The position numbers and the translations under genes were made by a program. A DNA stretch of 52,098 bases, the filler included, from Stramenopiles sp. TOSAG23-6 (taxonomy: Eukaryota), in the NCBI GenBank assembly GCA_900128565.1. It is 2 parts of 2 records of this genome, joined end to end, with 100 filler letters (N's around TTAATTAATTAA, not from the genome) between each part and the next. Parts side by side here need not be neighbours in the genome. Positions count along the whole stretch, not along the records: positions 1 to 26,014 come from LT635988.1; positions 26,115 to 52,098 come from LT635989.1. The stretch is one strand, 5' to 3'. This document shows positions 1 through 52,098 of this stretch, piece after piece; within the stretch, counting starts at the first letter, position 1; every line of letters begins with the position of its first letter. The notes under the pieces were generated by a model, which was given only the letters and a program-made list of their open reading frames with translations, had not been told where the DNA came from and made no database searches.

Positions 1-65
1 TTTTTTTTTCATACGAAATTTTGTACCTAACGATTTTTTTTTTGAAATATTTTTCCAAAATACAC
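1..65 (+). other. Repeat-family intron, 5'-truncated; by alignment ends ...AAAATACAC (AC variant)
   Basis: CATACGAAATTTTGTACCTAAC...GAAATATTTTTCCAAAATACAC matches the family consensus; the donor is outside the window. Confidence 0.75.
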
Positions 66-3000
66 CAATCAAGGGTTGTGTCTCGAAGAGGAAAAAACAA
101 TATGGTAGTCAAGTATGGTTGCCAAACGGCAAAAATGCTAAAAAATATAAGCCTCAGGATTCATCGTTACGAAGAATTTTCAAAAGAATTTCTTCCGCCG
201 TCTAAATCAAGAAAAACTGATATGCTTGAGAAAGCTGAACGGATAATGAAAGATGTTCATTATAGAGTTTTTAAGGATGCTTTTTGGGGAGACAAGGAGA
301 ATGTTTTTAAGGCTGCCCTCAAAGAAGAAAAGTGTTTTGAAAAAAAAATTAAGAAAAATGTTATTTGTAAACATGAAATTACTATTGAATATCAAGACAT
401 AAAAAAAGAAAAACTCTGTATAAAATCTTATAAGCTTCACAGTAAAGGATGTGCAGTACATGTTCCATCTAGAGGATCAAGAAAAGCAGATTTATCAAGT
501 ACTTATAGCGAAGAATTGCGCCTCGAAGCTGTTGCAAATCCAATAAACTCAAAAAAAATTAAAAAAATTAGGAACAAGGAATTGATCAGAAGTGGATATA
601 CACAACAAACCGATCAAGACTACAGGTTCCTCCGTCGACAACAGAAAAAAATTATTGGAACCCCACTGGACCATGTTCAACTGGTAGTGACAAAGCTGTT
701 GAAGCATGTGAAGGGAAAAGATGATGAGACCCAGCTTTTTTTTGAGTTCACGTTATCAGAGGAAAAAGAATTTAGATTACATTTAAAATCAATAGGAATG
801 ATCCCGGGGTCATTTATTCGAATGCTGGAAGTTGAAGTTGACAATGTGCCCATCATAAGGAAGAATCGTTCCGGAGATGCTGCGCATGCAAATTCTCTCT
901 TTTTCGGAATTCTCCTAAATATTCTTGCTAGTGGTCCTGGGAATATGATACTTCTAGCTCTACTTGCATGGTGTTCAAGACATGAAAGTAATTCAACATG
1001 GGGTTTTACAAGTCATATTTATAAAGAGGTCTTAGGTGTAATTTTTGCATTGATGTCTGATGGTCGGAAAGGTTTGGCTGGTGTATTCAAACGTGAAATG
1101 GGAATCAACAGTTTCAAGCTTGCATGTTATATGCACTTAAAAAAAAATCTATTAGATAATGGGATTCCTCAAGACAAGATTGGTTTCTTTACAGCAATGT
1201 TCTATGCTCGTACAAGAGATAATTTTTATATAAATATGAAATACATGCTTGAAGACTTAAGTCAACGTCAAGTACAAACAATTAAAAGAATACTATGTGA
1301 AGAGAATCCTGTTTTCACTTGGTCTGCACCATTTTTCCCTGAAGGTGTAACAAGAGAAGGGATGTTCACCAATCAATTGAACGAATCATATCATGGCGCG
1401 ATGAACAAGCGTGAGACTCGGAAGCTTTTTCCTGGTCAAATGCTACAAGTAGAGCATGATGAACATTTCAAACGATACACACTACAGCTAGAAACTGCAA
1501 AGAAGGAGCTTTTACAAGGTTATATACTCGAGAAGAAATACAGAGATCGCGTTACTGAAGCACTAGAAGTCCTCGATAATTTAGAGGGGACATTCAGTAT
1601 GGTTGTCAATCCAAATGATCACATGAAGGCTGAAATAACTTACATAACTAAATCTGGTCGTCGGGGTGAAACACACATTTGCAGTGCTGTACCACCATAT
1701 GAGTGCAGCTGTAATACTATAAGAGATTGTGAGTATCTTTCATGTGTCAATTCAAACTATTTCCTTCGGAAGAGGAACATTGACCCAAGATATGCGGTTC
1801 ATGTGCGACATCGTATTACATCAAAAATTAAACTCATGGAAGCTGCTCTTAATGTAAAGACAAATAAAGACCTTCTTAATATAAATCTCTCAAAGGTGGA
1901 GCAGATCACGACACCGCTAATAAATGCAAAGAATAAACGACCAGCAGGTAGAATGACTACACAAAAACAGAGAGCTAAATATAGAAAACAAGAAAAGATC
2001 AATAAACGTAGATTTGAAGAAAACCCTAATATTATTTTCAAAGAACTGGAACGAACTGTTCGTTGTGTCCTCTGTGGTGGTCCTCATTTTGCAGATAGAT
2101 GTACAACATGCAGCGACGGCAAAGGTAATTCAATAAATCCTAATAGGATGCAACGGGAAATAGATGCGAAATCAATAATAATAAAAATAAACTCCATTCA
2201 AGATATACTTGACTTAATCCCGAAGGATATCAATGAATGGAATGAATTACTCAAGAAACAAACTCATAATAATAATAATAGCAAGAGTACAGAAACTCCT
2301 GAATATAGACGACTATGTCGGCAATTTGTGATAAACACATTGAAAGATTATGCACAAACATTGCAGCCTGTTCCGATTGCTCATCTATCTCTAACGCAGA
2401 GACAGCTATTGAGAGAAACCTATGTAAATCTTAATGCATCCTATAATCATAATCTGTTAAAACGAAAGTGTTCCAAACCTATTCAAGAAAGAACCAAAAA
2501 ACCTCGTACAAAATTGACTGATAAACATGTTCCGAAATCGACTGATAAACATGTTCCAAAATCGACTGATAAACATGTTCCGAAATCGACTGATAAAGAT
2601 GTTCCGGAATCGACTGATAAACATGTTGCAAAATCGACTGATAAACGTGTTGCTCTAAAAAATAAAAAAAAAATAAGAAAATTGAGTGCTGATGCTGCTG
2701 AAAAAAATCATATGAAATCTCTAGAAATTTTACAAAGAGGTGCAGTTGGACTAGTAAACCTGGGTAACACCTGCTACTTAAATAGTGTGGTACAATGTTT
2801 GTATGTTTTACTTTTTTTTTCAAATTTGAAATTGTTTTTCATAAGAAATTTTGTACCTTATGATATTTTTGAAATATTTTTCCAAAATACATGAGTTCTT
2901 GTGAAAGCCTCACACACTTCTTCCTTGAAAATTATGAAGAAAAAGAAGGAGTTCCGAATTATTATTTTAAATTAGTGAAGGAAATGTGGTCTTTGGAGTG

Positions 3001-4961
3001 TACTAATGTGTCACCAAATGACATAGTAAATCATTACAAAAAAAAACATTCGGTATTTTCATTGAATATACATCATGATGCATCCGAATGGATGGTTGCC
3101 TTACTAAATGACTTAGATGAAAGCTTGGCCGATAAATTTGTTGAGTCTAAACAAAATGACTCATCTATTCTTATTTATAATGAACAAAGTGTGGAATCAA
3201 AGACAAATGATGAAAATGACTTACGTAAAATATATCTCCAACAATATCAAACATCTGTCATAAGTTCGATATTTGGCTTTCTTGTAAAATGTACAATCAC
3301 TTGTCCAAATTGTAGTTTACAATCTTTGAAATTTGCAAGACAAATGAAATTGGATCTACCATTCACACAACCGAAAGGTTCGAATGATTTTGTTGAGTTG
3401 AAAGACTTGATTGATAATTTTTTGATAACTGAAGAACTGGATTCTGAAAATATGTGGAATTGTCTACAATGTAAAAAAAAAGTAAATGGAAAAAAACAAC
3501 TTGCTGTATTCAACAGTCCAACCATTTTGGTTCTCTGTCTCAAGAGGTTTGAATATATACATGAGAAAGGGAGGATCAAAATCAGTACCAAAGTCAAATA
3601 TCCTATAGAATTAAATATGTCAAACTTTATGTTGCCAGGTTCTTCAAATGTTGAACTGTATAATCTGGTAAGTGTTAGTCATCATATGGGTTCTGCTCAA
3701 ACAGGGCATTATGTAGCATATACACGTAATTTTTTAAACAAAAAATGGTACAAATTTGATGATGACTCAGTTGAAGAAATTATATGTACAGAATCAACAA
3801 TTGTCGATAATTCCGCATATATACTTTTCTATGAGAAAAAAAATTCAAAAATTCAAAATTGTAATTTAAAACAACAAACCGAGAAAAGTGAATTTTGTGT
3901 ATGCAAAAAGTTTAAAGATGAACGTATGATTATGTGTGAGGAGAAAAATTGTCCACATGGGAAATGGTTCCATTTAACATGTGTCAATGTACTTGAAAGT
4001 TATGCAAAGAATCCTTCCAATAAATGGTTCTGTAATGAATGTTCTGAAATAGATCTCGTTTCTGATTATGATACTGATGATGAAGAAATCCCCACAATTA
4101 AAAGGAAAAAAAAAAAAAAAACTTTTAAGATGGAATATTCAAAAAGAAAATTTACAGCATCACAGAAACGAAAAATTCATAAGCATCTTGCTTATTCTGA
4201 AGAAGAGTCTTCTGAAGAAGAGGATTCTGAAGGAGAGGAAAGCATGATTGATGTAAATGTATATCCTATTCGGCCAAGTGATTTTCGTCGTCTTCGACCA
4301 AAAACGTGGCTCAATGATGAGATCATAAATTGGTTTCTCTTGGATGTATTCCCAAAAGAATACAACGGACTAAAATTTCATTTTTTCAACACATATTTTT
4401 TTAAAAAGCTCTATTTTGAGGGAGGTTGTTATAATTATGAAAATGTCAAAAGATGGACAAAGAATCTAGAGAAAATGTTAAAAAAAGATGTAGTATTCAT
4501 TCCGATTAACCCACCTCTGCATTGGTCTTGGGTGGCTCTTTTTCCAAAGAAGAAAGAAATTCATTATTATGATTCTTTTCAGAATAAACTAAATGCACAA
4601 AGATATGGTCGTATAATAACCAGATATTTAAAAGATGCAACTTCAGATAAACTAAACATATCATTACCAAAGTGGAAGATAAAACATCCGGTGTCACCTA
4701 TCCAAACAAATCAGTGGGATTGTGGTGTATTTACAATCATCGGAATAATGCATGTTTTATATTTTTTCAATTTTGATTTTTTTTTTAATATGAAATTTTG
4801 TACCTAACAAATATTAATTTTTTTTTTGAAATATTTTTCCAAAATACATGTACACTTTTCTAGGAAAAACTTTTGATTATAAAGAAGAAGACATGCCACG
4901 TTTTAGATTATTATTGGCTTTTACAATATTAAAAAATTCTAAAAAAGAATTCAAAATATGA
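66..4961 (+). CDS. MULE-like DDE transposase fused to SWIM, Zn knuckle, USP (C19) deubiquitinase, PHD finger and Ulp1 (C48) protease; 5'-partial; exons 66-2800, 2893-4749, 4850-4961
   Basis: Transposase motifs GDAAH (~876), MSDGRKGL (~1059), CYMHL and TNQLNESYH (~1383). SWIM-like CSC..C and CVLCGGPHFADRC knuckle. USP Cys box GLVNLGNTCYLNSVVQCL, His box HHMGSAQTGHYVAY and WYKFDD. PHD CVC..C..C..WFHLTC..WFCNEC. Ulp1 WLNDEIIN, HW, YDS, QTNQWDCGVF. Two ORFs and a terminal exon (YTFLGKTFDYKEEDMPRFR) are joined by removing two repeat introns. Confidence 0.85.
2515..2648 (+). repeat. 24-bp coding tandem repeat (STDKHVPK, about 5.5 units)
   Basis: Repeated tcgactgataaacatgttccgaaa units in the transposase-USP linker. 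Confidence 0.9.
2801..2892 (+). other. GT-AT intron (92 nt)
   Basis: Removal gives QCL-SSCESLTHFFL, colinear with [14 protein letters not shown] of the USP at 21289; branch variant CCTTAT. Confidence 0.85.
4750..4849 (+). other. GC-AT intron (100 nt)
   Basis: GCATGTTTT...GTACCTAAC...CCAAAATACAT; removal restores the Ulp1 C-terminus DCGVF-x15-Y-KEEDMPRFR. Confidence 0.85.
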
Positions 4962-4984
4962 AACATTTACAAAATAAAATTTAT

Positions 4985-11921: not shown

Positions 11922-12016
11922 CAGTAAGTTTTAACCCCTCCCACGGTCAAGCTTTTGAATCTCTATATATCAATATTCTTTCTTTGGATCTAATTCGTTA
12001 GATATCATCGAGAGTA

Positions 12017-13042: not shown

Positions 13043-13313
13043 TCTATACGCGTATGATCAGACCATCTTGAAAGATACTCTTCATTCATAATAATAGCCA
13101 TATTACGGTACCGTATAGGTTGCCACATACCCAACGAACGACGTTACAGTCAAAGAAATCACGAAATATATAGAAAAAGGTCAAAGGAGTCAGTGCAAAA
13201 GTTTGCTATGGGCTGATTGTGTCGAGCCCTTAACCTATTGCATGCGCTTAGTTCATTCTACAAGAAGGAGTAATTTTACACCAGTGTTAAACCTACTCTA
13301 TTTCTTGGTTACA

Positions 13314-16079: not shown

Positions 16080-16673
16080 AGTCATAGATAGCAAACATGT
16101 AATAGTGGTCAATACAAAGATTCTTTTCATAGCATAATGAAGGGAATTTTTATTTAAAGATTTTTATTTGAAAATACTCTGTAAAAATAAAACTGTCATT
16201 ATCTGTTCGTTCCTGTAATAACTATTCTTTTAGTAATACTTTTCTTGTTTTAGAATTTAATGTGGGTTTTATTCTATAGAAAATATCAGGTTACAAATAA
16301 TGTTCATTTAGTTTGACTTTATATGAACTGGTTTATGTGTTTATATGCAATGTGACTGCCTACGGTGTAATCCGCATTAGAGATGTGATAGAATTGTTCA
16401 ACAGCTAGTGCTAGCTATAGCAAAGGCCAATAATTTTTAGTTGTCGAAAATTTGAAATTCCAACAAAAAATTAAAATTCTTTCAAAAACACGAAATCATG
16501 AAAACTCAAAAAATTAAAAACGCCGTTACGGACTGTTACTTTTAGAATCTAGATATACAGTACAAAACTCATACTCATATAGATACAGTACAAAACTCAT
16601 ACTCATACCTGGAGTGTTTGCACTAAGAATCTGCCATTTTTAGTTCAAACAAGGACTTATCTTCTTATTAAGT

Positions 16674-19877: not shown

Positions 19878-20993
19878 ATGAATGTGTTTATTAAAGATCT
19901 TGATCCAGGTAAAGCTTCTTCTGAGCCCAACAGTGTGTCATCCAAGTGTGTGGCACTATCTATAGATCTGATGATCACTTTGAATCACCAAATAGAACTT
20001 TTTCGTCAAATAGAGTATAATTCAGGATTCCCTTCCCTCAAGAAGTATAATTCACTACGTTTTTCAAAGCCTCTGTTACCAGAAGATCGCAGGATAAGCT
20101 ATGTTTATGAAAAGTCAAATCCTGTAATTATGGTTGAGTTACTCTCTAAAATACGCAACTTTGGTTGCTTACCAAAACTGGCAACTTCAATGGATGGTAT
20201 ATTCTATGATTTAGGATCTGGTGAAGGTCACGTAGTATTTGCGGTAGCTGCATTGTGCAAAGAATTTAATATACTGAAAGGAATAGAACTGAACTGGGGA
20301 CGATGTAGTTTTTCAAAGGCGTTTTCGCAATGTTGTACTTTTTCAAAATTGAGTTTCAAATTTTTTTTTTCATACTAAATTCCGTACCTAACAAAAAAAA
20401 ATCTAAAATGTTTTTTTCACAATACATGGTTATCCCACTTAGACAATATTATTTCACAAAATAAAAAAAATAAAGACATAGGATATACTCCGAAACATCA
20501 AAAACAGAAACAAGAAATAAAAAAAAATGAAAGGGAAATGACTGAAATTGTCAATATACCAGAAAATATTCATTTTTTACAGGAAGATTTTATTGACGGT
20601 AGAATTGACTGGAGCGACGCTTCTTGTGTTTGGGTTTCATCTACTTGTTATGATGATGTGACAATGTCACATATTTGGAACCTTGCGAAACAGCTTTGTC
20701 ACAATTCAGTGGTTGTAACTTATGTACGTTTTCAAAATTAAATTTCGAATTTTTTTTTGTACCAAATTTTGTACCTAACAAATTTTTACTAAAAATAATA
20801 TTTTTCCAAAATATATGATAAACCACTACGACCCATAAAACTCCGACTTGATAATTCTGAAACAACTTTACGAAAAAACCCTAACTTTTGTACATTTTTT
20901 TCAGTTGAAGACATAGGTATTTTTTCTCTTAGTCCTACATGGAGGCCTCGAGTATTCGTAAATGTGCGTAATGAAATTCCTTGGCACCTTTAA
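19878..20993 (+). CDS. DOT1-like class I SAM-dependent methyltransferase; exons 19878-20334, 20428-20723, 20817-20993
   Basis: FYDLGSGEG, GIEL, EDF..DWSDASCVWVSSTCYDD; three open segments separated by two repeat introns. Confidence 0.75.
20335..20427 (+). other. GT-AT intron (93 nt; alternative in-frame donor at 20332)
   Basis: GTACTTTT...CCGTACCTAAC...TTCACAATACAT; contains an in-frame stop. Confidence 0.75.
20724..20816 (+). other. GT-AT intron (93 nt)
   Basis: GTACGTTTT...GTACCTAAC...CCAAAATATAT; removal gives VVVTY-DKPL. Confidence 0.8.
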
Positions 20994-21288: not shown

Positions 21289-23543
21289 ATGTCAACTGGT
21301 GGTAGAAAGGGACGCTTCAACAGCTACAATAATCGTAGTGGTAACTATTTATCTTCAACTCAGTACACGCACCAGAAAAATCATTGTAGAAATGATACAA
21401 GTGGTGGGACTGATAGCTACAGGACAATTAAAAGCAGTACCAATAGAATGAATAGAACTAATATTCAAAAAAATGATCGTAGACTGGTGGACTCAAACTA
21501 CCGTCAAACTTCAAATCTAGACAACTTGAGAAAATTTGACTCGTCTTATTCGAGTACTTCCTCATTGATGCATTCTTCCCACGACCAGAGACATTCTAAT
21601 AGCATGAAAAGATCATATAAACGCCAAGGTTCGTATCTGCTCGGAGGTTCGCCATCTTTGCATAGCCAAAATAGATCCTATTCAGGCAGCAGTTTCAGTA
21701 ATTTAACTATGGAACAGCAACTTCCTGACAAAGAAAGCACTGAAAAAAATAATTATAACTGTAAAACACAGTCAAAACAACAACTATTGAGCCAAACGAC
21801 AAACAAACGACTTGAAAGAGCAATGAAGCATTTAGATTTGTCAAGTAATTTTACATTAAACCGATCCACAACACCAATTTTAAATTCAAACAAATTCGCT
21901 TCAAAGGATACGTCTCACATGCTTTCATATAATAGTTATGAAGATTCAAACAAATTCTCTTCAAAAGATACGTCTCGCATGCTTTCATATAATAGTTATA
22001 AAGACCCGAGTAGTGTCCCCAGTACGATGAATTACTCAACTTCGGCATTACCAATACATTCAAAGAAAGTGGAAAATTGCACTAACCCATTAGTTATTTC
22101 AAACACATCAAGAATTTCCAAACAAAATGATTTATGCCATCCTCTACATAGATACAGTAGATGTAACGGGAGAAATCGACGAATCTCCGACACACATGTT
22201 TATGATAATAGCTTTCGGAATAGCCCCATTAGTAAGACTGGTAATAAAGTTATTGGCATCAAAAGTCAAAATGAATTTTCTCAACAAAAGAGTGACTGCA
22301 CGAAGAATGAATTATATGCAGTGTTTTCTAATCCTTCAACACCTCGTTGGCCACTACCACCGTCGACACCACTAAGAGAATCTCCTGCAGGTAAAAAGGC
22401 TGGCTATTGTGGTTTACGCAATTTAGGTAATACTTGTTTTATGAATTCTGCATTACAATGTTTGAGTAACACTCCTACTTTAACTGATTATTTTCTTAGG
22501 GGAAGACATCAACGGCAAATCAATAGGACAAATCCATTGGGAATGCGTGGTGAGTTGGCTACTGCATATGCTGACTTGATATCATCAATGTGGAATGAAA
22601 CAAAACAATCAATTTCACCATCTAAATTCAAAGCAGTTATAAGTAAATTTGCACCTCAATTTAGTGGTTATCGGCAGCACGACAGTCACGAATTATTAGC
22701 ATTCCTTCTAGATGGTATTCATGAAGATTTAAACCAAGTTAAAAACAAGCCATATAGAGAAATGCCAGATGATTCATCAATGCAAGACATCGAATTAGCG
22801 AATTTATTTTGGCAGCATCATACAGCTCGAAATCAATCAATTATTGTAAATCTTTTTCATGGACAATTTAAATCACGAGTACAGTGTCCTGAGAAGTCAT
22901 GTACGTTTTATTTTTTTTTCAAGTTCGAATTTATTTTTCGTACGAAATTTTGTACCTAACAAATTTTTGAATTTTTTTTGAAATATTTTTCCAAAATACA
23001 TGTAAACATACTTCACTCACATTTGATGCGAGCATGTATCTATCAGTTCCGGTTGTAAAAAAAAGTAGAGGAAGAAGTAGTAGTACTCATTTAAGAGACT
23101 GTCTAGCAAAGTTTTCGACACAGGAACAATTAGGTAAGAATGATCAATGGTATTGCTCAAAGTGTAAAAAATTTAAACAAGCGTATAAACAGCTTACGAT
23201 TTGGAAATTACCTCGTATACTTGTATTGCATCTCAAACGTTTTCAACATGGAAAATACCGACGGAGTAAACTTGAGACTTTGGTTGAATTTCCAATTTCT
23301 GGATTAGATATGTCTTCATACTTGGTGCCTGGATCTCCTGATTCAAAAATGTCTAATTTATATGACTTAATTGCGGTATCTAACCACTCTGGAAATATGA
23401 GAGGAGGGCATTATACCGCATGTGGATTAAATCAGGTGACTGGCCAATGGCTATGTTTTAATGACGCAATGGTAAGTTCAGTGAGTGAATCTTCACTTGT
23501 ATCTAAATCAGCATATATATTATTTTATAAAAGAAGACAATAA
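21289..23543 (+). CDS. Ubiquitin-specific protease (C19, USP4/11/15- or USP8-like); exons 21289-22900, 23002-23543
   Basis: [53 protein letters not shown]. Confidence 0.93.
22901..23001 (+). other. GT-AT intron (101 nt)
   Basis: Removal corrects the frame and restores [24 protein letters not shown]. Confidence 0.88.
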
Positions 23544-26014: not shown

Positions 26015-26114
26015 NNNNNNNNNNNNNNNNNNNNNNNNNNNNNNNNNNNNNNNNNNNNTTAATTAATTAANNNNNNNNNNNNNNNNNNNNNNNNNNNNNN
26101 NNNNNNNNNNNNNN
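26015..26114. other. Assembly gap: 44 N + TTAATTAATTAA + 44 N (artificial six-frame stop linker)
   Basis: Symmetric 100-nt spacer. Confidence 0.95.
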
Positions 26115-26169
26115 CAAAATTTCGTACGAAAAAAAATAAATTCGAAATTGAAAAAAAAATAAAACATAC
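26115..26169 (-). other. Repeat-family intron, 3'-truncated by the gap
   Basis: GTATGTTTTA...CGTACGAAATTTTG directly follows the codons for DHIGH. Confidence 0.85.
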
Positions 26170-27642: not shown

Positions 27643-27928
27643 AATAGAATTTTTTTTATATAAAGCATACATAATATTTAGATGCTGTTTTTATAATTGT
27701 ATGTAAGGTAGTGTATAGTACTTTATACTTATAATTTATTTTATTTGAGTAACAATAACCACAAAAATGTACGAACTTTCGTCATTCCAAAATTGAATTT
27801 TTTACCTACATATTTTTTCGTAGAAAATTTCGTACGTAACGATTTTGTTTTACTAAAAAAATTGGTATTAAACTTTCCAATCAACTTCTGTCAACACAAC
27901 AAAATGTAGATGTGATGACAAGTAAACC

Positions 27929-28696
27929 TTAAAATTGGAGATAAAAATGGAATGCATGAATATAAGCAAAACCACCAGGTTGTTTGGTGCATTTTTTGTG
28001 TGTGTAAGGCGTGGGCAATTGGAATATAGACATTGATGGTTGACTTAATTTGACATTGGTAAACTGATACGTCATGTATTTTGGAAAAATATTTCAAAAG
28101 AAAAATCGTTAGGTACAAAATTTCGTACGAAAAAAAAAATCGAATTTGAAAAAAAATAAAACATACATTAAAGGTTCAGAAATTCCCTGTCCATCTTCAC
28201 CTACAGCTAACCACTCTTCTGTCAACATAACAGGATAACCAGTATCGGCATTCTGCCAGATATGGATGTATGAATCTAAAGTTTTGACGATAAATCGTTC
28301 GCAGTTTGTGCAAATGCCAGAGAGCGACTCATTTCCTTTATAGGTTGCTGTAGAAGGAAACTTTGGTTCTGGCATATTCTCACCCAAGTAGAACCTATTA
28401 CACTCAGCATATTCGCCACTTTCAATCATATACTCTTGTTTTGAGTCATAGCGTCGGATGTAACTTCTTCCTGCTTCATAGCCGACGCTGATGTCAGCCC
28501 GAGCACGGCGATTTGTATAGTCATAATAGACTTTTAGTTTTCGCTCCCGATGAGGATATTCTGTGCCCTCCGGTATCTGATGTGCTGTAATTACTAAATC
28601 GGCAGAAAATTGTAGTGGAAAACGAAGTACGGGTGTTAAAGAGTAACCAAAGTGAACAAGTATGAAGCAGAAGAGTAAAACTGACTGTAGCATCAT
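27929..28696 (-). CDS. Secreted protein, possibly ependymin-related (LolA-like fold); exons 28696-28167, 28073-27929
   Basis: Signal peptide, PLQFSA, YYDYTNRRAR; the spliced tail is TYQFTNVKLSQPSMSIFQLP..C. Confidence 0.65.
28074..28166 (-). other. GT-AT intron (93 nt)
   Basis: Near-consensus copy; the next AG is 10 nt downstream and out of frame. Confidence 0.85.
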
Positions 28697-35177: not shown

Positions 35178-35455
35178 ACTATTTTTGTATGAAAAAATTT
35201 ATTGAGAGATATTGTAAATATAAAAAACTTGATATACAAATAACTAACTATAACATTGGTGGTGGAATTTGAAATTATTATATTTATTTTAAGATGGAAA
35301 AAAACTAAAAACATGAAAACTCAATAACTAACTATGACTTTGGTGGTGGAATGGTAAAAACTTCCTTTGACTCTTCAACATTGAAAAAAATAATTATTTC
35401 ATCTATTTGTTTTTGTTTGACGTTGTTTTACACTAAAAAATATGAAAGTAATATC

Positions 35456-36583: not shown

Positions 36584-36807
36584 CTTGAAGATACTCTGAT
36601 ACTCTCTCTCTCTCTCTCTCTCTCGCTTGGATGCTAAACACTGAACAACGTAACGAATGTTTAGTTGTAGTTAGTGCTTTTGTCTTTCGCGCCCATCTTG
36701 AAGATACTCTGATACTCTCTCTCTGATACTCTCTCTCTCTCTCTCTCTCTCCCTTGGATGCTAAACACTGAACAACGTAACGAATGTTTCGTTGTACGTA
36801 GTTAGTG
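36566..36807. repeat. Tandem duplication (units of about 112 and 130 bp) spanning the Sel1 start codon and a (CT)n microsatellite
   Basis: gcgcccatcttgaagatactctgatactctct...cttggatgctaaacactgaacaacgtaacgaatgttt occurs twice. Confidence 0.9.
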
Positions 36808-37087
36808 TTTACTTATGATTATTAAGTTAACACAAAGCCAATCGATCCAATGTCATATCGGTTGGCCGAATTCTGTCACATCAGGATGTGCGGTCAGAAA
36901 AAAAAAATTAAAACCTCCGTCGATTGCTGTCCGGTAATTCCGGTCGAAATTCAACGTATCATCAGTTACAAAGTTCTTGTCCCCTAATATGATACTCCAA
37001 CACAAAGGATATATCATTGACATAATTATTCACTTTCATCCAACCGAACTTCAGACACGTACAATAGCAAAATCCAAATAGAAGAAG

Positions 37088-38776: not shown

Positions 38777-38872
38777 TGAGGTATTTATGATAATGAAAAG
38801 TAATTAATAAAAATAAAACAACAATGTATTTGGTTACAGTTTACAGAAAATTTATAATATATTTAAATATCA

Positions 38873-40517
38873 TTAGATATCTACAATTTTACACAAATCA
38901 TCAATATTATAACGAGGCATAGTTTTACTATCTTTCTTTTGATGAATATTCCAAATACATTGAGTGATTAATTTTGTCATTGCCATGTCTACAGAGTCAT
39001 ACATTTTTTTACATTTACTATAATCTATGTTTATACTTTCTTCTTTGTCAAACTCTGTGAGTTTATTGTTTTCAACAGTATCATTAAACTGTTTTATCGC
39101 GGTATAAAAATCTTTTTTAGATCCAAAATGGCCGAAACCAAAACCATAACGATTTATTCCAACCATTCTTAGTGTTTGTTTCAACGAATTTTTATCATTA
39201 TTTCGTTGATTCTTCTGAGCTTTACATGAATGTCTCATGAAAATCCGACCCCATTTACATGTGCTAGGTGGAATATCTACTATACTTTCCTTACATTTTT
39301 GGAATGATTTTTTATCATGTTTCAGAGTGAAATTGCCTGCATTTTTGTCATTGTACAAAATCGAGGACTTTCTTGTAGTTGACATATTTGTATTGATCAT
39401 AGTTTTTATATTTGAAGTTTTCGTTTGATTACATACAAATGCATCTATAGAATTCAAAGTTTTCTTTTCTTTTACTCTACATATTTTGTGAAAAAATATT
39501 TTTTTTTATACAATTTGTTAGGTACGAAATTTCGTACGAAAAAATAATTGAAAAAAAAAATCTATCTGTAAAGTACTAACAAATTCAGAGGAGAGACAAG
39601 TTGTCCCTTTGAGCTTTTGAACTGTTGTCCTAAACCAATGAATAATACTGTATATATGTATTGTGAAAACAAATTTCAAAAAAAAATGTTTTTTTGTTAG
39701 GTACAAAATTTGGTACAAAAAAAATAAAATAGAAATTTGTAAAATGTACAATAAAAATCGATAAAAAGAAGTTCCCTACAGTTGTATGACGTAGCCAATG
39801 TCTTGTTTCAAGTATGCTCCATGATGTATTATTATGCAAATTGTTACTCCTAGATACATCTTGGTTAACAACGAAATCTCCAACAATTATGCCGTGGTTA
39901 CAGCCTACTTGAAACTCTACACCTTCTACTGGCTGTATATGGCTACATATGACTCTATCAGAGTGAGTTGAAGCAATATTATCTCTAATTTTTAACCGAT
40001 ACCAAGTATTTGGTTTGAGGGTTATAGTATTCAAGTTACTTAACTTTGTCAAATCAAAGAGTATACTTTGGGGATTTACATGATCATCATTAGAGATAGT
40101 AGTACTATCTACACCATTTTTACACACATTCTTTGGAAAAGTATTCTTTAAAGGGAAACTTGATAAAGACGATAAAGACGGACTAGTCGTACAACTATTA
40201 ATTTGATAGTAACTATATAAGTTAGGTATGACATGAATATTTTCAAGAATGAGACCACAAGAAACAACCTGATCATCTAATAGTCCACTGATTCTAAATA
40301 AAGATGTTGTTCTTCGAGGAAATGGTTCACCATATTTACACGAAGTCATAATATCTACAAAGTAATAATAAGAAGACAGTTTTGTTGTTGGACTTTTTTT
40401 TGTGCTAGCATTACAATTACAAAGCTTATTTTTGTTATCGGGATGACAGGTTGTATTTTTCAAATTAATGGGAAGACGATCTTCATCATCCAGCGACTCG
40501 GAAAGTTGCAAAGACAT
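38873..40517 (-). CDS. Hypothetical single-pass membrane protein; exons 40517-39750, 39655-39577, 39480-38873
   Basis: Three ORF fragments join in frame after removing two repeat introns; the first junction completes the hydrophobic segment FFLSIFI-IYSIIHWF. Confidence 0.7.
39481..39576 (-). other. GT-AT intron (96 nt)
   Basis: GTACTTT...GTACGAAATTTCGTACCTAAC...TTCACAAAATAT. Confidence 0.75.
39656..39749 (-). other. GT-AT intron (94 nt)
   Basis: GTACATTTT...GTACCTAAC...TTCACAATACAT; removal corrects the frame. Confidence 0.8.
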
Positions 40518-40839
40518 CGGAAAATGATAATATCGAACTTTGTTTTACCATCTCATGATGATGCAACACACGAGAGAAAGAATCTCTGTGTATGACAGTC
40601 CGGTTTTTTGATTGATGAAAAATAATATCCGAACTTCAAGTTCGGACAGGTTTGTCAGAATTCGATTTTTCAATTATTATGTATGCGCATTTTCCCCCAT
40701 GCTTTTGATTTCATCTGATGAAATCAAACTCAAAATCTGAATATCAAAGAAAAGTATATCATCATGAGAGTTAGAGTTTTTTTATTATCAACAGTAATTA
40801 ATAATGAATTACTTGAATAAGTCAACTGCTTAAATTCTC

Positions 40840-42969
40840 TTATTCATTTGAACAAACATTTTTCATAATCCATTCACCTTCCTCTAGTGCACATGTAGCA
40901 TGCGTTGGATGCGTAGGTAATGCAATCCATGTATCTTTCTCTAGTGCTGCTGTCGCAGTAAGACTTTTATAAACAGTTTCATTTAATTTCAAAGTGTTTT
41001 TAATATCAACACCAAGTAATACTGATATTGTCTTTATCGACTCCTTCTTTCTTCGACCCTTGACTATATACCAATATATTGCATCTCCCCATTTCATAAT
41101 ATTAGCACTATCCTTTAAACTGCTTGTATTACTCATTGTTTTAGACTTACTATATGTTGAACGTTTGGCTTTTGAGCAAGGAACTTTTGTAGTTTCATGT
41201 TTGCTATGTAAACAATGACACGAAATCTCTCGAAATGATTTGTCAGAAGAATTACATTTCAATCTATCACACGAATAAATAGTCTCATATGCCCCCGAAT
41301 TTTTATACCTTACTTCAATGCCGTTTTTATTTTCAAAACACTCGCGAAATGAAGCTCTATACCATGCATTGTGAAAAATACCAAAAATCAATTCGTTAGG
41401 TACAAAATTTTATACAATTTTTTTTTGAAATTCATGATAAGAAAACATACACGTACCTTTATATTCTACCATAAGGCCCGCATCATTCAAATGTAATGCA
41501 TTAGCCCATGCAGACATACAAGAAGGAAGATTTGAGTGAGAAATACTGCTGGAAGTGGAAGAAGCACTTTCTTGTTGTGATAAGAGATTTTGTTCTTGAT
41601 ATTTACATTTGTATGACTTATTACTAAGCATATCCTCAGTTGAACTCTTCCTTTTCTTTCTGTATGACTTATTACTAAACATATCCTCAGTTGAACTCTT
41701 CCTTTTCTTTCCAGAACTTTTCTTACGTGTTTTAGAAGTTTTGCTTGAAGTGGCAGAAGAAGGTGCAGATATTGAAGATAAGTATTGATTACGAAAAGAT
41801 AAGTATTGATTACGAAGTGATTGTAATGAAACTCCAGCCTGTTTCACACTTAACCAACCATTATCAGTTTTTTTCGATGGTACAATCCTGCGCTTCGTAC
41901 ATGTATTTTGGAAAAATATTTCAAAACAAAATTGTTCGTTAGGTACAAAATTTCGTACGAAAAAAAATTCGAAATTAAAAAAAATAAAATATACATATAG
42001 CCCAGCCAGAAGGTGCGTTAAACATAGCTCTAGTAGTTTCATCAACAATTATACCTTCTTTGGTCAATGCGGCATTGAAGACAACACCTTTGAAAGTTAT
42101 TGTCAGTGCTTTTGGACCTGATAATAAAATCCCGGATTTGACAAGATCTAGAAGACTACATGTATTTTGGAAAAATATTTCAAAAAAAAATTGTTAGGTA
42201 CAATTTCGTATGAAAAAAAATTGGAATTCGAAAAAAAATAAAACATACATGACTTTGAGGAGTTTTCATCTTCAATATCAGATGAATCAATAGCCGAATC
42301 AGTCGCCGAATTAGATGCTGAATCAAATAAAGATTCATCGGAATTATGATTTCGTTTGTTAAACTCTTCTTCTTCACTTCCAGAAGAAGTATTTGAAAAA
42401 TCATGTTTTTGGTATTTATTGTAGTAGATTTGGCGAGAGTTACGTATTTTCTGAACATTTTTCGCTGAAGGAACATTTACTTGACCTCGATGCCTCAATA
42501 GAATTCGAGGAAATATCTGAACATTACCATTTGGAAACTCCAACCAATCGGCAGTGTTGTTATCATAATCGATCAGAAATATCAATACGTGTTGATTTTT
42601 TTTATGTTGCTGATTGTTTGTTAGGTATGGATTTTTTTCAGCAAATGGAGATAAATTAGGTAAATCCTCTTGTAATAAAACCAAAGTTTTTCCCACATCA
42701 GATTTCTTTATATTGTAATACAACTTGATGTACCCCAAAATAAGTTGGTTGTGATATCTGACTTGTACTCTCCTTCCAATAAGGTTAGGAAAATTATTCA
42801 TAATAATCTGAGATTGATGAGGGTGAGCATAAGAATGAACTTGTCGAGAGTTATTCTTTATATGTCTAACTCTTTCCGTCTGACCATCTCTTTGAGTATT
42901 GTTACTGATAAGTTGGCCAGGTTTATCGGAATTTACGCCAATTGCATCAGGAAGAGAAAATGCTCTCAT
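40840..42969 (-). CDS. Putative chromatin protein: Tudor-like, RAMA, Tudor-like and LysM-like domains; exons 42969-42249, 42159-41995, 41900-41451, 41363-40840
   Basis: Spliced product reads LLDLVKSGILLSG..LTITFKG..FNAALTKEGII..FNAPSGWAICTKRRIVPSKKTDNGWLSVK (MPND-type RAMA), then VEYKGTWYRA and SIKTISVLLGV....LKLN...L.....L......LP. Confidence 0.72.
41364..41450 (-). other. GT-AT intron (87 nt; alternative in-frame donor at 41456)
   Basis: GTATGTTTT...GTACCTAAC...TTCACAATGCAT; removal gives KGT-WYRA. Confidence 0.78.
41901..41994 (-). other. GT-AT intron (94 nt)
   Basis: Removal corrects the frame inside the RAMA domain. Confidence 0.85.
42160..42248 (-). other. GT-AT intron (89 nt)
   Basis: Removal corrects the frame before the RAMA domain. 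Confidence 0.85.
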
Positions 42970-43357
42970 CTCAAGTGACAATAGTGTTTTTTTCGAAAGT
43001 GGTGAAAGAAGAATCCATCAACAACAACGAAAAAAAATCCGCTGTTATTTTTTTCAAAAACACGAAAAATTCAGATTTTTTTTTCATGTTTTCCAAGGTT
43101 GAACATTTGAAATGATAAATATTTTTAAAAACATCATATTTTCATTAATTCTATTCCGATGGCAAAATTTTTCTGAAGCAAACGCTGATGATGATGAAAC
43201 TGTAGTTCATTTAGATATTCTATGTTTTGAAACTTAAAGTAGTGAATTAACAATGAGTCACTTGAATGAGTCCTCTTATTAAATTTCTACAAATTCAATT
43301 CAATTTTGAAAATAAACAAGGAATATCTATTTATTATGTACGATGAATCAATTTCAT

Positions 43358-46247
43358 TCAATTTTGGCTACTACTACTACTACTTCCCATTCTGAACATT
43401 GATGCAAAATTAGCTGCTGTTGCTGCCGCAGTATTCGTATTAAATCGTTGTGAGAGTTCTGCGGCAGCATCGGACACAGTTCCTGTAAGACTTGTCGGTT
43501 TATACTCGAGACCCATCTTTTCAATAACTTCCTGTTGATCACTTTTCTTCTCACCTTTTAGGGTCATAACACGTTGTAAATCTGCAGCGGTGCCACCAAC
43601 CCATAAAATTTTAAAACTTTGAGGTAAACGTTCCAAAGGAGTCCCGATTAGTTTCAGCAGCATGACGGCTTTATTCGCTTCTTTATTTGCATATTTACTG
43701 AATGTGGAGAGAGATCGAATCATCGTAGCTTTTTCATCAGATTCTAAGTCTGAAGTCGGAACAGAAAGAAATGATGTTTTAACAGCATGTGTATCGAGTA
43801 ATAGTTGTTGTGCAGCCATTTCACTGATGCGTTTACATTTGAAGATATTTTGTGTAAATCGCGGTAAAAATAAAGCTGCGAAACGATCACAGAAATTATT
43901 AAAGTAAATCGGTCCAGATAGCGCAGAACGAATGGGTATCACTTGTTCCCGAAGTATTTTTGATATTTCAACCACATAAGGAGACTGGTCGCCAACATCA
44001 ACACATGTATTTTGGAAAAATATTTCAAAAAAATCGTTAGGTACAAAATTTACTATAAAAAAAAATTCCGAAATTGAAAACAAATAAAACGTACATGTAC
44101 CCCACGGCATTCGATGCATTGCAATGAGAGAGGGTTCTAATTTAACGACACAACCAGATATTTATTGTGAAAAAATATTTTTAAAATTTGAAATTCATTA
44201 GGTACGGAATAATTTAACAAAAAAAACAAATAAATAAAAATATGAAATTCATAAATGTAAAACGTACACTAGACACTTAATCGCTGCTCCAATGACATCA
44301 TAAAATGCATCGGGAGAAATATCAATATGTATTTTGGAAAAATATTTCACAAAAAAAAAATTGATTTTTGTTAGGTACAAAATTTCGTATGAAAAATAAA
44401 TTAGAAATTGAAAAAAAAATAAAACATACATGTTCCTCAAATACTTCGTCGATTTCATCTTGTAGCAACTCTTCTAATTGGGGCGAAGTCTCCGCACAAT
44501 AGGCAGCTGTGTTTACAATAAAACAAATCCAGTCACGAGTTTTATCATCTTTAATAACAAAATGATCTCCTAAAGAAGAATTAAATTGAGACTTTGGAAG
44601 TTTTTCACTTAATCTTTCAGAATATGTTGCTAAAACAGATTTAATTTCCTTTTGAAGTAAAAATAAAGTTTGACCATTAGAAAAATGAACACAACGTTCG
44701 ATTGCTTTTTTGATATATCGAAACAAAACTGCCGCAGATTGTAAAACTCCAATGTTACCTGATGTCATGTTTTCTTCTTCTTCTGACATAGCCTGTTCCA
44801 TAATAGTAATCATATTAGCCTTTTCAGCTTCTACATATTTTGACAAATATGGTTGAAATGCTGCGCTAATTATGCCTTTAAACTTTTTCAATTGTATTTC
44901 ATTATTTATATTATCTCCATTTTTTCCATTGAGTGACGTAGCACTCCCAAGTGGTGCATTAGAGGTGTCATCAAGACCATCATTAAAACGATTTGTCTCT
45001 CTTTTCTCTTTTTCTTTCTTTTCACGTTCGATTCGTTTGGCTTCAGTCCTCTGTTTTTCATATTTTCTACGAATGCCTTCTGCACTATTTGGATCAATTA
45101 ATTGACCATCATCATCAAATTCTGGACCACCTCCACCACTACGATTTGTTGAATCATCAGAATCTTCAATTTCTTTAAAACGATCACATAACATACGTTC
45201 AAATGATTTGGTTACACGAAGATGATGCATTAATAATTTCACATGCAAATCTTCGTTCAATAAAGAATTCAATTGAAGCCGCGTCGCTTCACAAAATTGA
45301 ATACAAATGCGCCGACACATTTGCCAATTTTGGGGGAAAACGTCAGCTAAATGTTTATCAAAGATCTTGAGAAGTCGTTTAAACCATTTAAAACGTCGAT
45401 CAACTGCAGCTTCTTCAGTTAAAATATAACCTTCGCCACCTCTCCCAAATAATCGATTATATGGACGAAGTTGATCTTCATAAAATAAGCGGATAAGTCT
45501 CTTTTGATGTGTACCACCGATTGATTCAACTACGAGGCAAGCATCACGTAGAGCTTCAGGGTCTATACCAGCTAACTGAGGATTATCTATAATTGCTCCA
45601 ACTTCTCGAAATTGATCAAATATTTTCTCCTTTAAATCTTTTTGAAGCTCTTTGACGACACCACATAACTCAGCCACCTTTGGTACATCCGTGTATGCTT
45701 CAAAATATGATGCTAATGATGTTACAGCACTCACCAGGTACGCTGCACGGTTATATTCTCCAGTCTTTGACATCTTTTGGAGTTGGTCAATGGCAGTCAC
45801 CCACATTTGGAGCTTCTTCAGGGATGCAATTGTCGTAGTCAAGTGATGCTTTGCGGAATCTAATTGTTTAATATCGCGGCATATTTCTTCTACCATTACT
45901 TCAGACTGCTCTGCTTTTGACTTGATATCTTTTATTTTGTGCGAAAGCTGCAGGATAGACTGCTTCGCATCATCTACATCACGTGAAGTCTGCTTTGAAG
46001 CAACAGCCTGTTCTCTAATTGCTTCAAATATTTCCTCATCTAAATTTTGTATTCGATCATTTAAATCTACAGAAAATTGATCAATGCGTGAAAGGGATAC
46101 TTCATCTGGAAATTGTGTGTTCAAATACGCAATAGGATCAAAGTCAGCACAATCTAGAGGGTCGTCCGAAGGAAGCACGTCTGCGATAGCTCGTTCTACA
46201 GCATCACTGAAACGGTCACGATCAACTGGACTCTGAGATGCTGGCAT
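43358..46247 (-). CDS. VPS53: Vacuolar protein sorting 53 (GARP/EARP subunit); exons 46247-44430, 44326-44268, 44159-44095, 44004-43358
   Basis: DPLD..DFDPIAYLN..FP, IKSKAEQSEVMVEEICRDIKQLDSAK.HLT, NTAAYC.ET, VGDQSPYV, AQQLLLD. Confidence 0.95.
44005..44094 (-). other. GT-AT intron (90 nt, in frame and stop-free)
   Basis: Removal restores W-x5-VGDQSPYV. Confidence 0.85.
44160..44267 (-). other. GT-AT intron (108 nt, diverged copy)
   Basis: GTACGTTTT...CCGTACCTAAT...TTCACAATAAAT; removal gives CLV-SGCVVKLEPSLIAM. Confidence 0.82.
44327..44429 (-). other. GT-AT intron (103 nt)
   Basis: Removal corrects the frame (EEH-IDISPDAFYDVI); no AG occurs within 35 nt downstream. Confidence 0.88.
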
Positions 46248-46401
46248 ATAGGCCGCCAAGGACACAACAGTATTGTGTTTGTAATATCAATGTGGGAAGC
46301 AGTGCAAATTGAATTGGTATTTAAGTCTGCCTAAAATTCCAGCGAATGATGAAAGCGATGAGACGAATTAAGATGTCAACACGACGACTTTGACCCACGG
46401 G

Positions 46402-46414
46402 AACCCTAACCCTA
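46402..46414 (+). promoter_or_regulatory. Telo-box-like AACCCTAACCCTA in the VPS53/DUF1330 divergent promoter
   Basis: Same motif as at 11908. Confidence 0.4.
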
Positions 46415-46561
46415 GCCTAGCGTGTCTATCAAGAATTTCAAAATTCATGATGGCTGTCATAAAAAAAACACTTTCGATTTCGGCAAGAGCAAAGCTTTGC
46501 CTTTGAGTTGTTCAATTTAAATTGGATCATAAAGTCGTGATTACTTCATATCGGAAAAAGA

Positions 46562-47200
46562 ATGCCGGAGACTTATCTTGTAGCGTACTTAAAAGTGACT
46601 GGAAATCTTGAAGAGTTCAAGACAGAATATGCAGCAAAAGTACCAAAGACTTTAGAACCCTTCGATGGACGCTATTTGGCAAAAGCTCTCCCTTTGAGTA
46701 ATGCAAAATTTTCTGAAGGGACTACTGCAAAGGACTACACGTTGTGTGCAGTACTTGTATTTCCAAGCAAAGAAAAAGCTATGGCATGGAAAAGTAGTGC
46801 TGCGTATCAAGCTATCCTTCCTGCACGAAAAGCAAATACTCAAGGTCCTGTCGCCATTGTCGAAGGACTTGGAAATGAATCCAAGCTGAGTGGTAAGGTA
46901 AAGGCAATTCTTGTCGCTTTCCTCAATGTATCCGACATGGACACTTTCAAGCAATATGCAGGTAAAGTCCCAAGCACGTTAGAACCGGTTAATGGCCAAT
47001 ATTTGGTCAAAGCCTTGCCTCTTGACAAAACTGCTCTTTATGCGGAGGGTTCGGAAAGTTTTACTCTCGCAGCTGTACTTGGTTTTGAAAGTATCGAAAA
47101 AGCTATGGAGTGGCACGACTCTAAACTTTATCATGAAGAAACTTTGCCTCTGCGCCTGAAAAGTGCTACTGGTCCAATGTGTATCACTGCAACGCTGTAA
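46562..47200 (+). CDS. Tandem DUF1330 (dimeric alpha-beta barrel) protein
   Basis: Two repeats of YA.KVP.TLEP..G.YL.K..F.S.EKAM.W..S..Y....P.R. Confidence 0.85.
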   Translation: MPETYLVAYLKVTGNLEEFKTEYAAKVPKTLEPFDGRYLAKALPLSNAKFSEGTTAKDYTLCAVLVFPSKEKAMAWKSSAAYQAILPARKANTQGPVAIVEGLGNESKLSGKVKAILVAFLNVSDMDTFKQYAGKVPSTLEPVNGQYLVKALPLDKTALYAEGSESFTLAAVLGFESIEKAMEWHDSKLYHEETLPLRLKSATGPMCITATL

Positions 47201-50400: not shown

Positions 50401-52048
50401 CATACTTCTGACGGTAAACATTTTTGCAAATTCCTCTTATCAGGACGCCCACAAATGTTTCTACCATGTCTTGACAGTAAAGTAGATTTAGTAGTGAGAA
50501 TTTCTGTCTCAACTTTTGTCCATGCACTATGACCATTTTCCGAACAAGTGCACCCTCTATTTTTATTCCAGTAGCATCTCTCAATTACGCATTGATCTAA
50601 ATCCATGTCTTGTTCACAATTACCACCTCCACAGTATTGCCCACAAAAAAAGTTATCACCATTAACATCAGTTACACCTTCTTTTTTGAAACATTCATCT
50701 TTTGTAGTTGGTGTCACTCCATTATCTCTCCAATTACAGTTCTTTTCTAACTCGCACAATGAGAGATTGGCCTCTTGCCATACATGTCCATTAGAAGTAT
50801 AAGCATAACCAGACTTAAGTCTATGAAATGTACCAACTGATTCATTTACATCAACCCATTTGTAATCAAGATCTTTTTGACAATCAACCTTTGCATGGTT
50901 CACATACGTCTCACCATTTTTTGCTTTCGTAGCAGTTGGTACACAAAACGACAATTTCTTTACAGCAGTATCGCAACTAACAATCATCTCTGAATCAAGA
51001 CGATTTTGCGCCGAATCACCAAAATGATTTTGGCCTACTTTACAGTAACTTTTCTTATTTTTGTCATCATAGAGAGAGGTCACTGTAATGCCATTCATAG
51101 CTTCCAATGCTTTGCATTGTTCTTCTGTTAGAGGGCCTGTTTTCAAATCAATCATACACACACCCTGTTCATGCATGTATCCACTACCAACACAATTTTT
51201 CATTGTAACCTTTTTCATCCATTTTTGTTCTGCACAGTAGTAATAATCGCTCGGTTTTTTTATCAACTCTGTTGCTTTCGTCAAATCCGAAGGGCAAACT
51301 AAACTTTTAGAAGTTGGAACATCGTATAAACCTGCCAACAGTCCACTAGAATTCACAATTTTACTACTGAATCCTAAATCATCTGCAACATAATCCCAAA
51401 CGCCCGGATCTTTCTCAGTGCCATGAGGAGCATTTTGTACCCAACATTTAAATAATGCTTTTGCTGCAGCTGATCCACTCATTTGCGTACATTGTTTCTT
51501 GCTATGATTGTCAGAGCATACTCCAGAATAACAATCACTCGATGTTGTGCAATCGTCTAAATTTGCCTTTGTTTTACCGTGATATACAGCCGATTGACAT
51601 TCATTGACAAATTTCCTTGCTGCGTCAATGTCGTCCTCTGATGCATTTTGCTCAACTTCACTATCGCAGTTCATATCACCTGGAATATTTTTCAGGTACA
51701 TCTGTTTACCGTAATATTGAATAAAGGATTTTGCTTTTTCATAATCAGCACCACATCCTCCAGGTTCAGTCTTTTCTTTTTTTGCAATTGCCGTCGCTGT
51801 ATCAGAAAGCACACAATCATCTTTACCTGGTTCACCACCTACTCCAACAGAACACGTGTCAGTGTGAACACCCACTTTTTCTTCTCTGACGCAACATTGT
51901 GTCCACGCAGCAATTTTGCTACAACAAGGATCCTTGTTGAATTCGGCTTTTTTTGCTGGATCATTTGGATCTATTGTACAAGCCACTGAATTGGGTAGCG
52001 TAACGGTAGTCGTTGCAGGTGTCAAAAAGGAATCAAGGTAGTGTAAGC
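47448..52048 (-). CDS. Large Cys-rich extracellular protein with a hormone-receptor-like (HRM) domain and a GPI-like/hydrophobic C-terminus; last exon, 5'-partial
   Basis: More than 1500 aa with many Cys; RRRL site; C.AVDGFPTTEAG.TASIACP.GQSGAITREC..DGNW; hydrophobic tail. The frame stays open back to the intron acceptor at 52049. Confidence 0.8.
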
Positions 52049-52098
52049 ATGTATTGTGAAAAATATTTTTTTTTTTGGTTTAAAAAAATCGTTAGGTA
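52049..52098 (-). other. Repeat-family intron, 5'-truncated, ending ...CACAATACAT
   Basis: TACCTAAC...TATTTTTCACAATACAT on the minus strand. Confidence 0.8.

Follow-up and report, generated by a model that had tools for sequence, protein, structure and literature searches.

Genes and intron copies in the window

The window analysed here is a stretch of 52,098 bases from Stramenopiles sp. TOSAG23-6 (assembly GCA_900128565.1), in which gene after gene is interrupted by members of a single family of short sequences that appear to be introns ending in AT instead of AG. The window is AT-rich (28-42% GC) and its long open reading frames (ORFs) are densely packed, with stop-to-stop spans making up 88.5% of the sequence. 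Copies of the family were defined by an nhmmer profile built from nine copies of one subtype, here called type A, and by direct inspection. The family comprises 17 copies, 14 of which are complete (87-108 nucleotides, nt) and three truncated. This corresponds to one copy per 3.06 kb of the 52,098 bases, close to the density of about one per 3 kb in unrelated genes that the initial annotation had given. The 22-nt core of the family, CGTACGAAATTTTGTACCTAAC, was matched 10 times in the window when up to three mismatches were allowed, and not once in any of 100 dinucleotide shuffles. The 17 copies align end to end across at least ten genes, and all of them are sense-oriented within ORFs (17/17, binomial 7.6e-6). 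Because the ORF spans cover so much of the window, only about two intergenic copies would be expected by chance, and the near-absence of such copies is thus uninformative.

The genes that host the copies have no relation to each other. The host genes with recognised domains encode a USP-PHD-Ulp1 fusion (its resemblance to Ulp1-type proteases was seen by eye and is not confirmed by Pfam), a second USP protein, VPS53 and a protein with a type I phosphodiesterase domain. The other hosts are four sets of ORFs without a Pfam match and an ORF of 1532 amino acids (aa) that is rich in Cys. The copies fall into two subtypes that differ in their 3' blocks. Type A, with nine complete and two truncated copies, has a 3' block that ends in TGAAATATTTTTCCAAAATACAT, and type B, with five complete copies and one truncated copy, has the 3' block TTTTTCACAATACAT and ends in TTTTTCACAAT(A/G)(C/A)AT. 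Two such subtypes had been noticed in the initial annotation; they are real, and the type-B copies are the ones it had listed, at 20335, 39481, 39656, 41364, 44160 and 52049.

On the plus strand, the window opens with the 3' part of a start-truncated type-A copy (1..65; nhmmer 3-64, E=9.8e-14), which ends in CCAAAATACAC, is followed by an ORF from position 66 and has the only 3' end in the family that reads AC instead of AT. The USP-PHD-Ulp1 gene (66-4972, +), in which an N-terminal region of ~900 aa without a Pfam match precedes the USP, PHD and Ulp1-like C-terminal parts, carries two type-A introns, both in phase 2. The first (2801..2892, 92 nt, GT..AT) interrupts the USP domain at a QCL/SS junction, and the Pfam UCH match runs on across it. 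The second (4750..4849, 100 nt) has a GC donor and reads GCATGT..ACAT. In the N-terminal region of the same gene, units of the KHVPKSTD type follow each other in tandem at about 2520-2650. Further along the plus strand are a type-B intron in phase 1 (20335..20427, 93 nt), which reads GTACTT..CACAATACAT, a type-A intron in phase 0 with the 3' end ATATAT (20724..20816, 93 nt), and a type-A intron in phase 1 in the second USP gene (22901..23001, 101 nt), where the codon split by the intron encodes the second Cys in a CPEKSC motif.

The remaining copies are on the minus strand. The 5' half of a type-A copy truncated by the assembly gap (26115..26169) lies in the gene with the Phosphodiest domain (PF01663), which the initial annotation had named PIG-G. 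It is followed along the window by a type-A intron in phase 2 (28074..28166, 93 nt), by a type-B intron in phase 1 with the 3' end CACAAAATAT (39481..39576, 96 nt), by a type-B intron in phase 0 (39656..39749, 94 nt), by a type-B intron in phase 1 with the 3' end CACAATGCAT (41364..41450, 87 nt), and by two type-A introns in phase 1 (41901..41994, 94 nt, and 42160..42248, 89 nt). VPS53 contains three introns, of which intron 1 is of type A (44327..44429, 103 nt, phase 0), intron 2 of type B with the 3' end CACAATAAAT (44160..44267, 108 nt, phase 2), and intron 3 again of type A (44005..44094, 90 nt, phase 1). The 3' part of an end-truncated type-B copy (52049..52098) precedes the Cys-rich ORF of 1532 aa. 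Apart from these copies, a degenerate fragment of the branch block (27809..27850, +; nhmmer E=1.1e-4) is located between two convergent genes, outside the ORFs, and may be a decayed copy or an intron in an untranslated region.

Splice borders and the missing AG

The 15 visible 5' ends comprise 14 GT and one GC within a GTAYGT-like donor, and the 16 visible 3' ends comprise 15 AT and one AC. None of the 16 is AG, the dinucleotide that is almost universal at the 3' ends of introns. A typical junction reads ...cAT/GTAYGTTTTA...AAAATACAT/G.... When the 14 complete copies are excised at G[T/C]..AT, all seven host genes concerned become single uninterrupted ORFs. The lengths of the copies include all classes modulo 3 (6, 4 and 4 copies), and the phases are mixed, with three introns in phase 0, seven in phase 1 and four in phase 2.

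VPS53 is 875 aa long after removal of its three introns and is then free of indels across the three junctions when compared with seven orthologues, five from oomycetes and two from brown algae, and with a liverwort homologue. The junctions read ...EEH/IDISPDAFYDVIGAAIKCLV/SGCVVKLEPSLIAMHRMPWGT/CVDVGDQ in the window and ...KEKVDLAEEQEPYYNVITQAVRVLVSGLETRVEPAFRAMSGINWGTCEMVGEES in Ectocarpus, and the codon at the junction of intron 44160..44267 encodes Val, as it does in all seven orthologues. The best match to exon 1 of VPS53 is a public coding sequence (CDS), P0001, with the source label GSMAST32.ASY1.ANO1.893.1, in which we take MAST to be the usual abbreviation for marine stramenopiles. The next matches are from oomycetes (38-39% identity) and brown algae (37-38%), and these matches identify the host as a stramenopile.

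In all 14 complete copies, the sequence from the branch box to the 3' end is free of AG. Two other placements of the borders were rejected. With the first downstream AG as acceptor, the frame stays open in no more than two of the 14 introns. For intron 4750..4849, the exon on the 3' side starts with YTFLGKTFDYKEEDMPRF and reads to a stop, and the use of the next AG (4863) gives a different C-terminal reading. A register of AT..AC, with both borders moved 2 nt upstream, brings a TGA stop into intron 20335, replaces the Val at the VPS53 junction that is shared by the seven orthologues and the liverwort homologue, and replaces the Leu of the QCL motif in USP, a residue that we take to be conserved.

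These reading frames support the view that the copies are real introns with a non-AG acceptor, and we infer from the genomic sequence that the 14 complete ones are spliced out of RNA. The initial annotation had left a choice between a burst of introners with a non-AG acceptor and extended signals that all introns need in a modified spliceosome. Its view of the copies as real introns of one family with an acceptor other than AG is upheld by the 14 of 14 open frames and the three VPS53 junctions.

Signal blocks, spacers and the choice of spliceosome

In pairwise comparison, type-A copies are on average 85.5% identical to each other and type-B copies 67%, whereas a copy of one type has about 70% identity to a copy of the other. 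Divergence is distributed very unevenly along the copies. Pairs of the nine complete type-A copies show a mismatch of 0.25 in each of the two spacers, to which many differences in the length of the T-runs are added, of 0.029 in the 16-nt branch block AAATTTTGTACCTAAC, of 0.039 in the 23-nt 3' block and of 0.10 in the 10-nt donor block. The mismatch in type B is 0.48-0.49 in the spacers and 0.15-0.21 in the blocks, which rank in the same order as in type A. The difference between 25% in the spacers and 3-4% in the branch and 3' blocks indicates that the signal blocks are held by selection, and the mean identities together with the diverged spacers indicate that the copies are not young. The recent burst suggested by the initial annotation is thus not supported, while the block-wise divergence bears out its extended signals, and the data point to a mixture of its two options. 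Its statement that all introns need these signals holds within the window, where it applies to 17 of 17.

The copies also resemble each other outside the signals. A CAAnTTCGAA motif and a second GTAC box (CGTACGAAAT) recur in the same order in both types, type B included, and the length is uniform at 87-108 nt. This bears on an alternative in which there was no transposition and the copies are old, independent introns that came to look alike in a lineage whose spliceosome needs very long signals. Such convergence would account for the confinement of conservation to three blocks, for spacers that vary in length and differ by 25% (type A) to 49% (type B), for the presence of the signals in every intron of the window (17/17), and for the lack of an autonomous element and of any clear intergenic copy within the window. 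However, the ordered recurrence of the CAAnTTCGAA motif, the second GTAC box and the uniform length goes beyond any plausible signal, and we consider it unlikely that convergence is the whole explanation.

All 14 complete copies contain a branch box that reads CCTAAC, or CCTTAT / CCTAAT, followed by T-runs, and the branch A sits 32-44 nt from the 3' end of the intron. Introns of the minor (U12-type) spliceosome have the branch consensus TCCTTAAC and the donor [AG]TATCCTT, and their branch A is located about 10-20 nt from the 3' end. The copies could belong to this class, or to a transformed version of it, in which non-AG ends are tolerated, and the invariant CCTAAC box does resemble the U12 branch consensus. 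A further point in favour is Physarum, in which a minor system in transformed form has reportedly expanded on a large scale, to go by the title of that study. But the donor of the family is GTAYGTTTTA and not [AG]TATCCTT, the distance of 32-44 nt exceeds that of U12-type introns, and GTATGT together with CTAAC is the classic yeast-like pair of U2-type introns. In favour of this class, the pair GT-AT is documented as a rare but splicing-competent combination in U12-type introns (PMC1557818; this and the other papers cited here are drawn on in excerpt). On balance, we regard removal by the minor spliceosome as improbable.

Termini, flanking repeats and the origin of the family

The 5' exon flank is AT, identical to the last two bases of the intron, at eight of ten type-A junctions, and at none of the five type-B junctions, where it is TT, TA, TT, GT and GT. 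The termini, GTAT(G)TTTT and AAAATAC, form short imperfect inverted repeats, often in a palindromic C-AT-G context. Direct repeats and inverted termini are the hallmarks by which introners are defined as transposons that resemble miniature inverted-repeat transposable elements (MITEs), according to the excerpted text of PMC11282704. As such, the flank repeat at eight of ten type-A junctions and the inverted termini speak against signal convergence, although both could also be splice-site context.

In folded RNA, AU/GUAUGUUUU pairs with AAAAUACAU/ in a duplex of 4-8 bp in 14 of 14 complete copies. Eight of the 14 have a minimum free energy fold that closes with a terminal stem of the CAUGUAU/AUACAUG type, in line with the imperfect complementarity of the ends described in the initial annotation. 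A hairpin GUACGA/UUGUAC upstream of the branch box, seen in several folds, was rejected as a conserved feature, since changes in its 5' arm are not compensated in the 3' arm, which is the same in all copies, as judged by eye.

A 2-nt direct repeat and inverted termini around CATG would also suit precise removal at the level of DNA, either like the internal eliminated sequences of ciliates or by a cut-and-paste transposon that restores C-AT-G, and no RNA junction was present among the pieces listed from the searches. Yet a strongly constrained donor and branch box are needless for DNA excision, 17 of 17 copies lie in the sense of transcription, and both DNA runs, X1 and X3, keep the copies in place beside exon sequence. 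We also know of no precise DNA-excision system in stramenopiles, and such a process is very improbable here. The minor-spliceosome reading is weaker than that of the major spliceosome, and DNA excision is weaker still.

The assembly carries its own trace of the family. The N gap at 26015-26114 consists of two runs of 44 N around a 12-mer linker, TTAATTAATTAA (26059-26070), which has stop codons in all six frames and is therefore artificial. The two runs and the linker indicate that separate contigs were joined into the window, which makes it a pseudo-scaffold, and the sequences on either side of 26015-26114 need not adjoin in the genome. The start of the window, its end and the edge of the gap all fall within copies of the family (1-65, 52049-52098 and 26115-26169), as the initial annotation had pointed out. 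Of the 119,919 contigs of the DNA run X1, in which 96% of the words of the stretch are present, 11,875 have a match to the 20 kb at 27200-47199. Neither this tally nor the summed depth of the contigs can be read as a copy number. Over the intron bins the depth of the RNA libraries was high, but summed depth does not measure expression either. Among the contig pieces listed, some stop inside copies, at 28100, 39689, 42221, 44029 and 44405. Contigs broken at copies fit a dispersed high-copy repeat in short-read assembly, which is a further argument against the convergence of independent introns.

The join of contigs at the linker (26059-26070) and the contig ends inside copies might also raise the suspicion that the copies within ORFs are an artefact of assembly or amplification, or contamination. 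But the copies differ from each other, their removal restores proteins that are colinear with orthologues, and they are also found in independent seawater DNA and RNA runs of other studies. An artefact is thus almost inconceivable.

The explanation that we favour, and consider probable, is that the copies are nuclear spliceosomal introns that derive from one MITE-like introner ancestor, use a YAT acceptor and are removed by the major spliceosome. All copies would then descend from one short, non-autonomous element, and each would have brought its own signals, namely the donor AT/GTAYGTTTTA, a CTAAC box in the block AAATTTTGTACCTAAC, a T-run and the long 3' block. The major (U2-type) spliceosome would recognise donor and branch site as it does in ordinary introns. 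The choice of the 3' site would depend on the conserved 3' block, or on a protein that recognises this block, and/or on the end helix, in which AU/GUAUGUUUU would pair with AAAAUACAU/ and so bring the two splice sites together. With the 3' site fixed by the block and/or the helix, a terminal U in place of G would be tolerated. The 2-nt direct repeat AT would represent a target-site duplication that was turned into the last two bases of the intron. After a genome-wide spread the copies would have aged, their spacers diverging by 25-49% while the signal blocks were kept by selection. That the spliceosome may have adapted in a manner analogous to the U2AF paralogues of Fritillaria is a guess by analogy.

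Several observations weigh against this explanation. The borders are ambiguous by one base in either direction, because the junction bases are duplicated, and TG..CA or TA..TG would be almost as good a fit; the G[T/C]..AT register was preferred because it has the most uniform borders and because GC is the usual variant of a GT donor. The likeness of the spacers may in part reflect shared T-richness instead of descent. The ends form short, imperfect inverted repeats, and the energies of whole-intron folds are ordinary (z -2.5 to +1.4 against mononucleotide shuffles). Pfam searches, with E<=1 for the long unassigned ORFs, revealed no transposase within the window, and no autonomous element was found there. 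It is the structure of the copies that suggests their past mobility. An Rfam scan of the window gave no small nuclear RNA gene, and the Rfam and tRNA scans of the window had no matches at all. Finally, no RNA contig of 150-280 nt bridges any of the 14 introns among the pieces listed.

Searches beyond the window for the family itself were also negative. A gapped pattern that was too loose led to at least 116 metagenome loci (697,500 bases), among which nhmmer detected no family copy at E<=1e-3, and the exact 22-mer had no match in viral and prokaryote-genome contigs.

Mis-modelled proteins in public data

The public model P0001, which corresponds to 43361-46286 of the window, shows what happens to a host gene when the introns of the family are not recognised. 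Its apparent identity to the VPS53 of the window is 79%, but 707 of 722 aligned columns are identical, so that P0001 represents the same gene and the figure of 79% is an artefact of annotation. In P0001, the 3' half of intron 44005-44094 is translated and exons 2 and 3 are skipped. The model also cuts five stretches out of exon 1 as false GT-AG introns, of which at least three are conserved coding sequence in the orthologues. Moreover, 25 residues that are absent from P0001 align to VPS53 orthologues in the spliced version from the window.

A profile made from two intron read-through peptides gave seven matches among 1.84 billion representative proteins. Five of these, the CDS models P0044-P0047 and P0049 (for which P0051 is an alternative), bear the same source label as P0001 but represent other genes, and at least one of the intron-derived peptides VRNFVPN and FFEIFFQNT is present in every one of them. 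The presence of these peptides in models of other genes indicates that the family is dispersed over that assembly and that peptides derived from it contaminate the public proteome. What is said here of every intron draws on 17 copies in 52 kb and on read-through peptides in six public models. No named organism with a different label was found among the seven matches, and the remaining two, P0048 and P0050, are weak. P0050, from ENA contigs of about 1.5 kb, contains a tandem 18-aa unit, FRTRNYVPNKKLCSEQEI, that resembles a translated branch block, and P0048, from JGI/ENA contigs, contains ISNRFPNPAFILEIFWKNTC three times over. These could be related repeats of other organisms or chance matches. 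Protein searches for the read-through peptides or the spliced fragments (146-468 aa; 30-145 aa) yielded no match.

Gene finders that expect GT-AG introns mis-model the host genes, and six public CDS models are affected by intron peptides or skipped exons. It is therefore likely that the proteomes and gene counts of an abundant group of uncultured ocean protists are systematically wrong.

Comparison with known intron systems

The introners of Micromonas pusilla (PMC11282704) and Aureococcus (PMC7789003) resemble the window family, as far as the excerpts describe them, in that one short sequence occurs as sense introns in many unrelated genes, with its own splice signals, in a marine picoeukaryote host. 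Their short direct repeat at the border and their terminal inverted repeats may also have counterparts in the family. They differ in that they are GT-AG introns, whereas the family ends in AT and has a repeat of 2(-3) nt. The family also stands apart from them in that every intron of the window is a member, the copies are old (85% and 67% identity) and the constraint on the blocks is strong.

The introners of Amoebophrya, another marine protist, share with the family the non-canonical borders (PMC7789003, in excerpt), and their direct repeats at the boundaries and inverted repeats that pair the ends may correspond to its direct repeat of 2-3 nt and its end stem of 6-8 bp. There, direct repeats of 3-5 nt overlap the exon/intron boundary and the inverted repeats are 8-20 nt long (PMC7789003). 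The excerpts describe many families, among which none of the terminal dinucleotides dominates and the donor lacks a clear signal, and they report that U1 went undetected (PMC7789003). In contrast, the window has a single family with fixed G[T/C]..AT borders, a GTAYGT donor and a CTAAC box.

Nearly all introns of Fritillaria borealis escape the GT/AG rule, a MITE origin has been proposed for them, and it is an adapted major spliceosome that removes them (PMC11282704, PMC13326754, both in excerpt). The non-canonical 3' ends are recognised by divergent U2AF paralogues (PMC13326754). However, the borders in F. borealis are highly diverse and the 5' ends are non-GT, whereas the window family, in a stramenopile host, has a canonical donor and differs only in the last base of the acceptor.

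The nonconventional introns of euglenids are similar to the family in their non-canonical borders, and perhaps also in junction repeats that resemble target-site duplications and in the pairing of their ends (PMC11282704). In the excerpted account, they have no polypyrimidine tract, vary in length and have a consensus neither at the donor nor at the branch site (PMC11282704). The family, with its T-runs, its uniform length and its strong signals at donor and branch site, is different in all these respects. The animal GT-AT introns, of both U2-type and U12-type, have the same terminal pair, and demonstrate that the chemistry is possible (PMC1557818). But they number a handful per genome according to that source, whereas 14 of 14 complete introns in the window end in this way, 13 as GT..AT and one as GC..AT.

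A search of the literature on MAST-3, Incisomonas and uncultured stramenopiles, supplementary files being outside its scope, turned up no account of AT-ending introns of one family. The excerpts of PMC5778133, of a 2026 bioRxiv single-cell paper and of PMC9860276 contain no mention of an AT-ending intron family. What sets the window apart from these systems is the combination of a single family, a textbook donor and branch site, and an acceptor that departs from AG in the same fixed way in all introns seen.

We tentatively suggest that this stramenopile lineage may have acquired essentially its whole intron complement from one introner, and that its major spliceosome may routinely use an AU 3' dinucleotide. 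As part of the same tentative proposal, the AU would be located through an intron-borne signal of ~20 nt and/or through the pairing of the ends. If this is true, an AU acceptor in use throughout the genome would amount to a changed core splicing rule, while the rules for donor and branch site would stay as they are. The known genome-wide exceptions to AG, in Fritillaria, Amoebophrya and the euglenids, have messy and highly variable borders. The family in the window is an unusually clean natural system for the study of 3' splice-site choice, and it is well suited for asking how a transposon forces or exploits a change in the spliceosome.

Other genes in the window

Two paralogous ABC half-transporters are encoded in tandem on the plus strand (13119-16076 and 16644-19454; 986 and 937 aa). 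Both have ABC_membrane and ABC_tran domains and contain no intron of the family. In a single-exon ORF of 2040 aa (29055-35174, +), a UvrD-like helicase region comes after some 25 ankyrin repeats. A gene for a Sel1-repeat protein with a C-terminal MYND finger (35459-36670, -) has raised contig depth in four of four runs, which suggests that it belongs to a multi-copy gene family. A near-perfect tandem repeat rich in GCT/GCA (25860-26014) reaches the end of the first contig, and on the minus strand it encodes low-complexity sequence rich in Ala, Glu and Lys.

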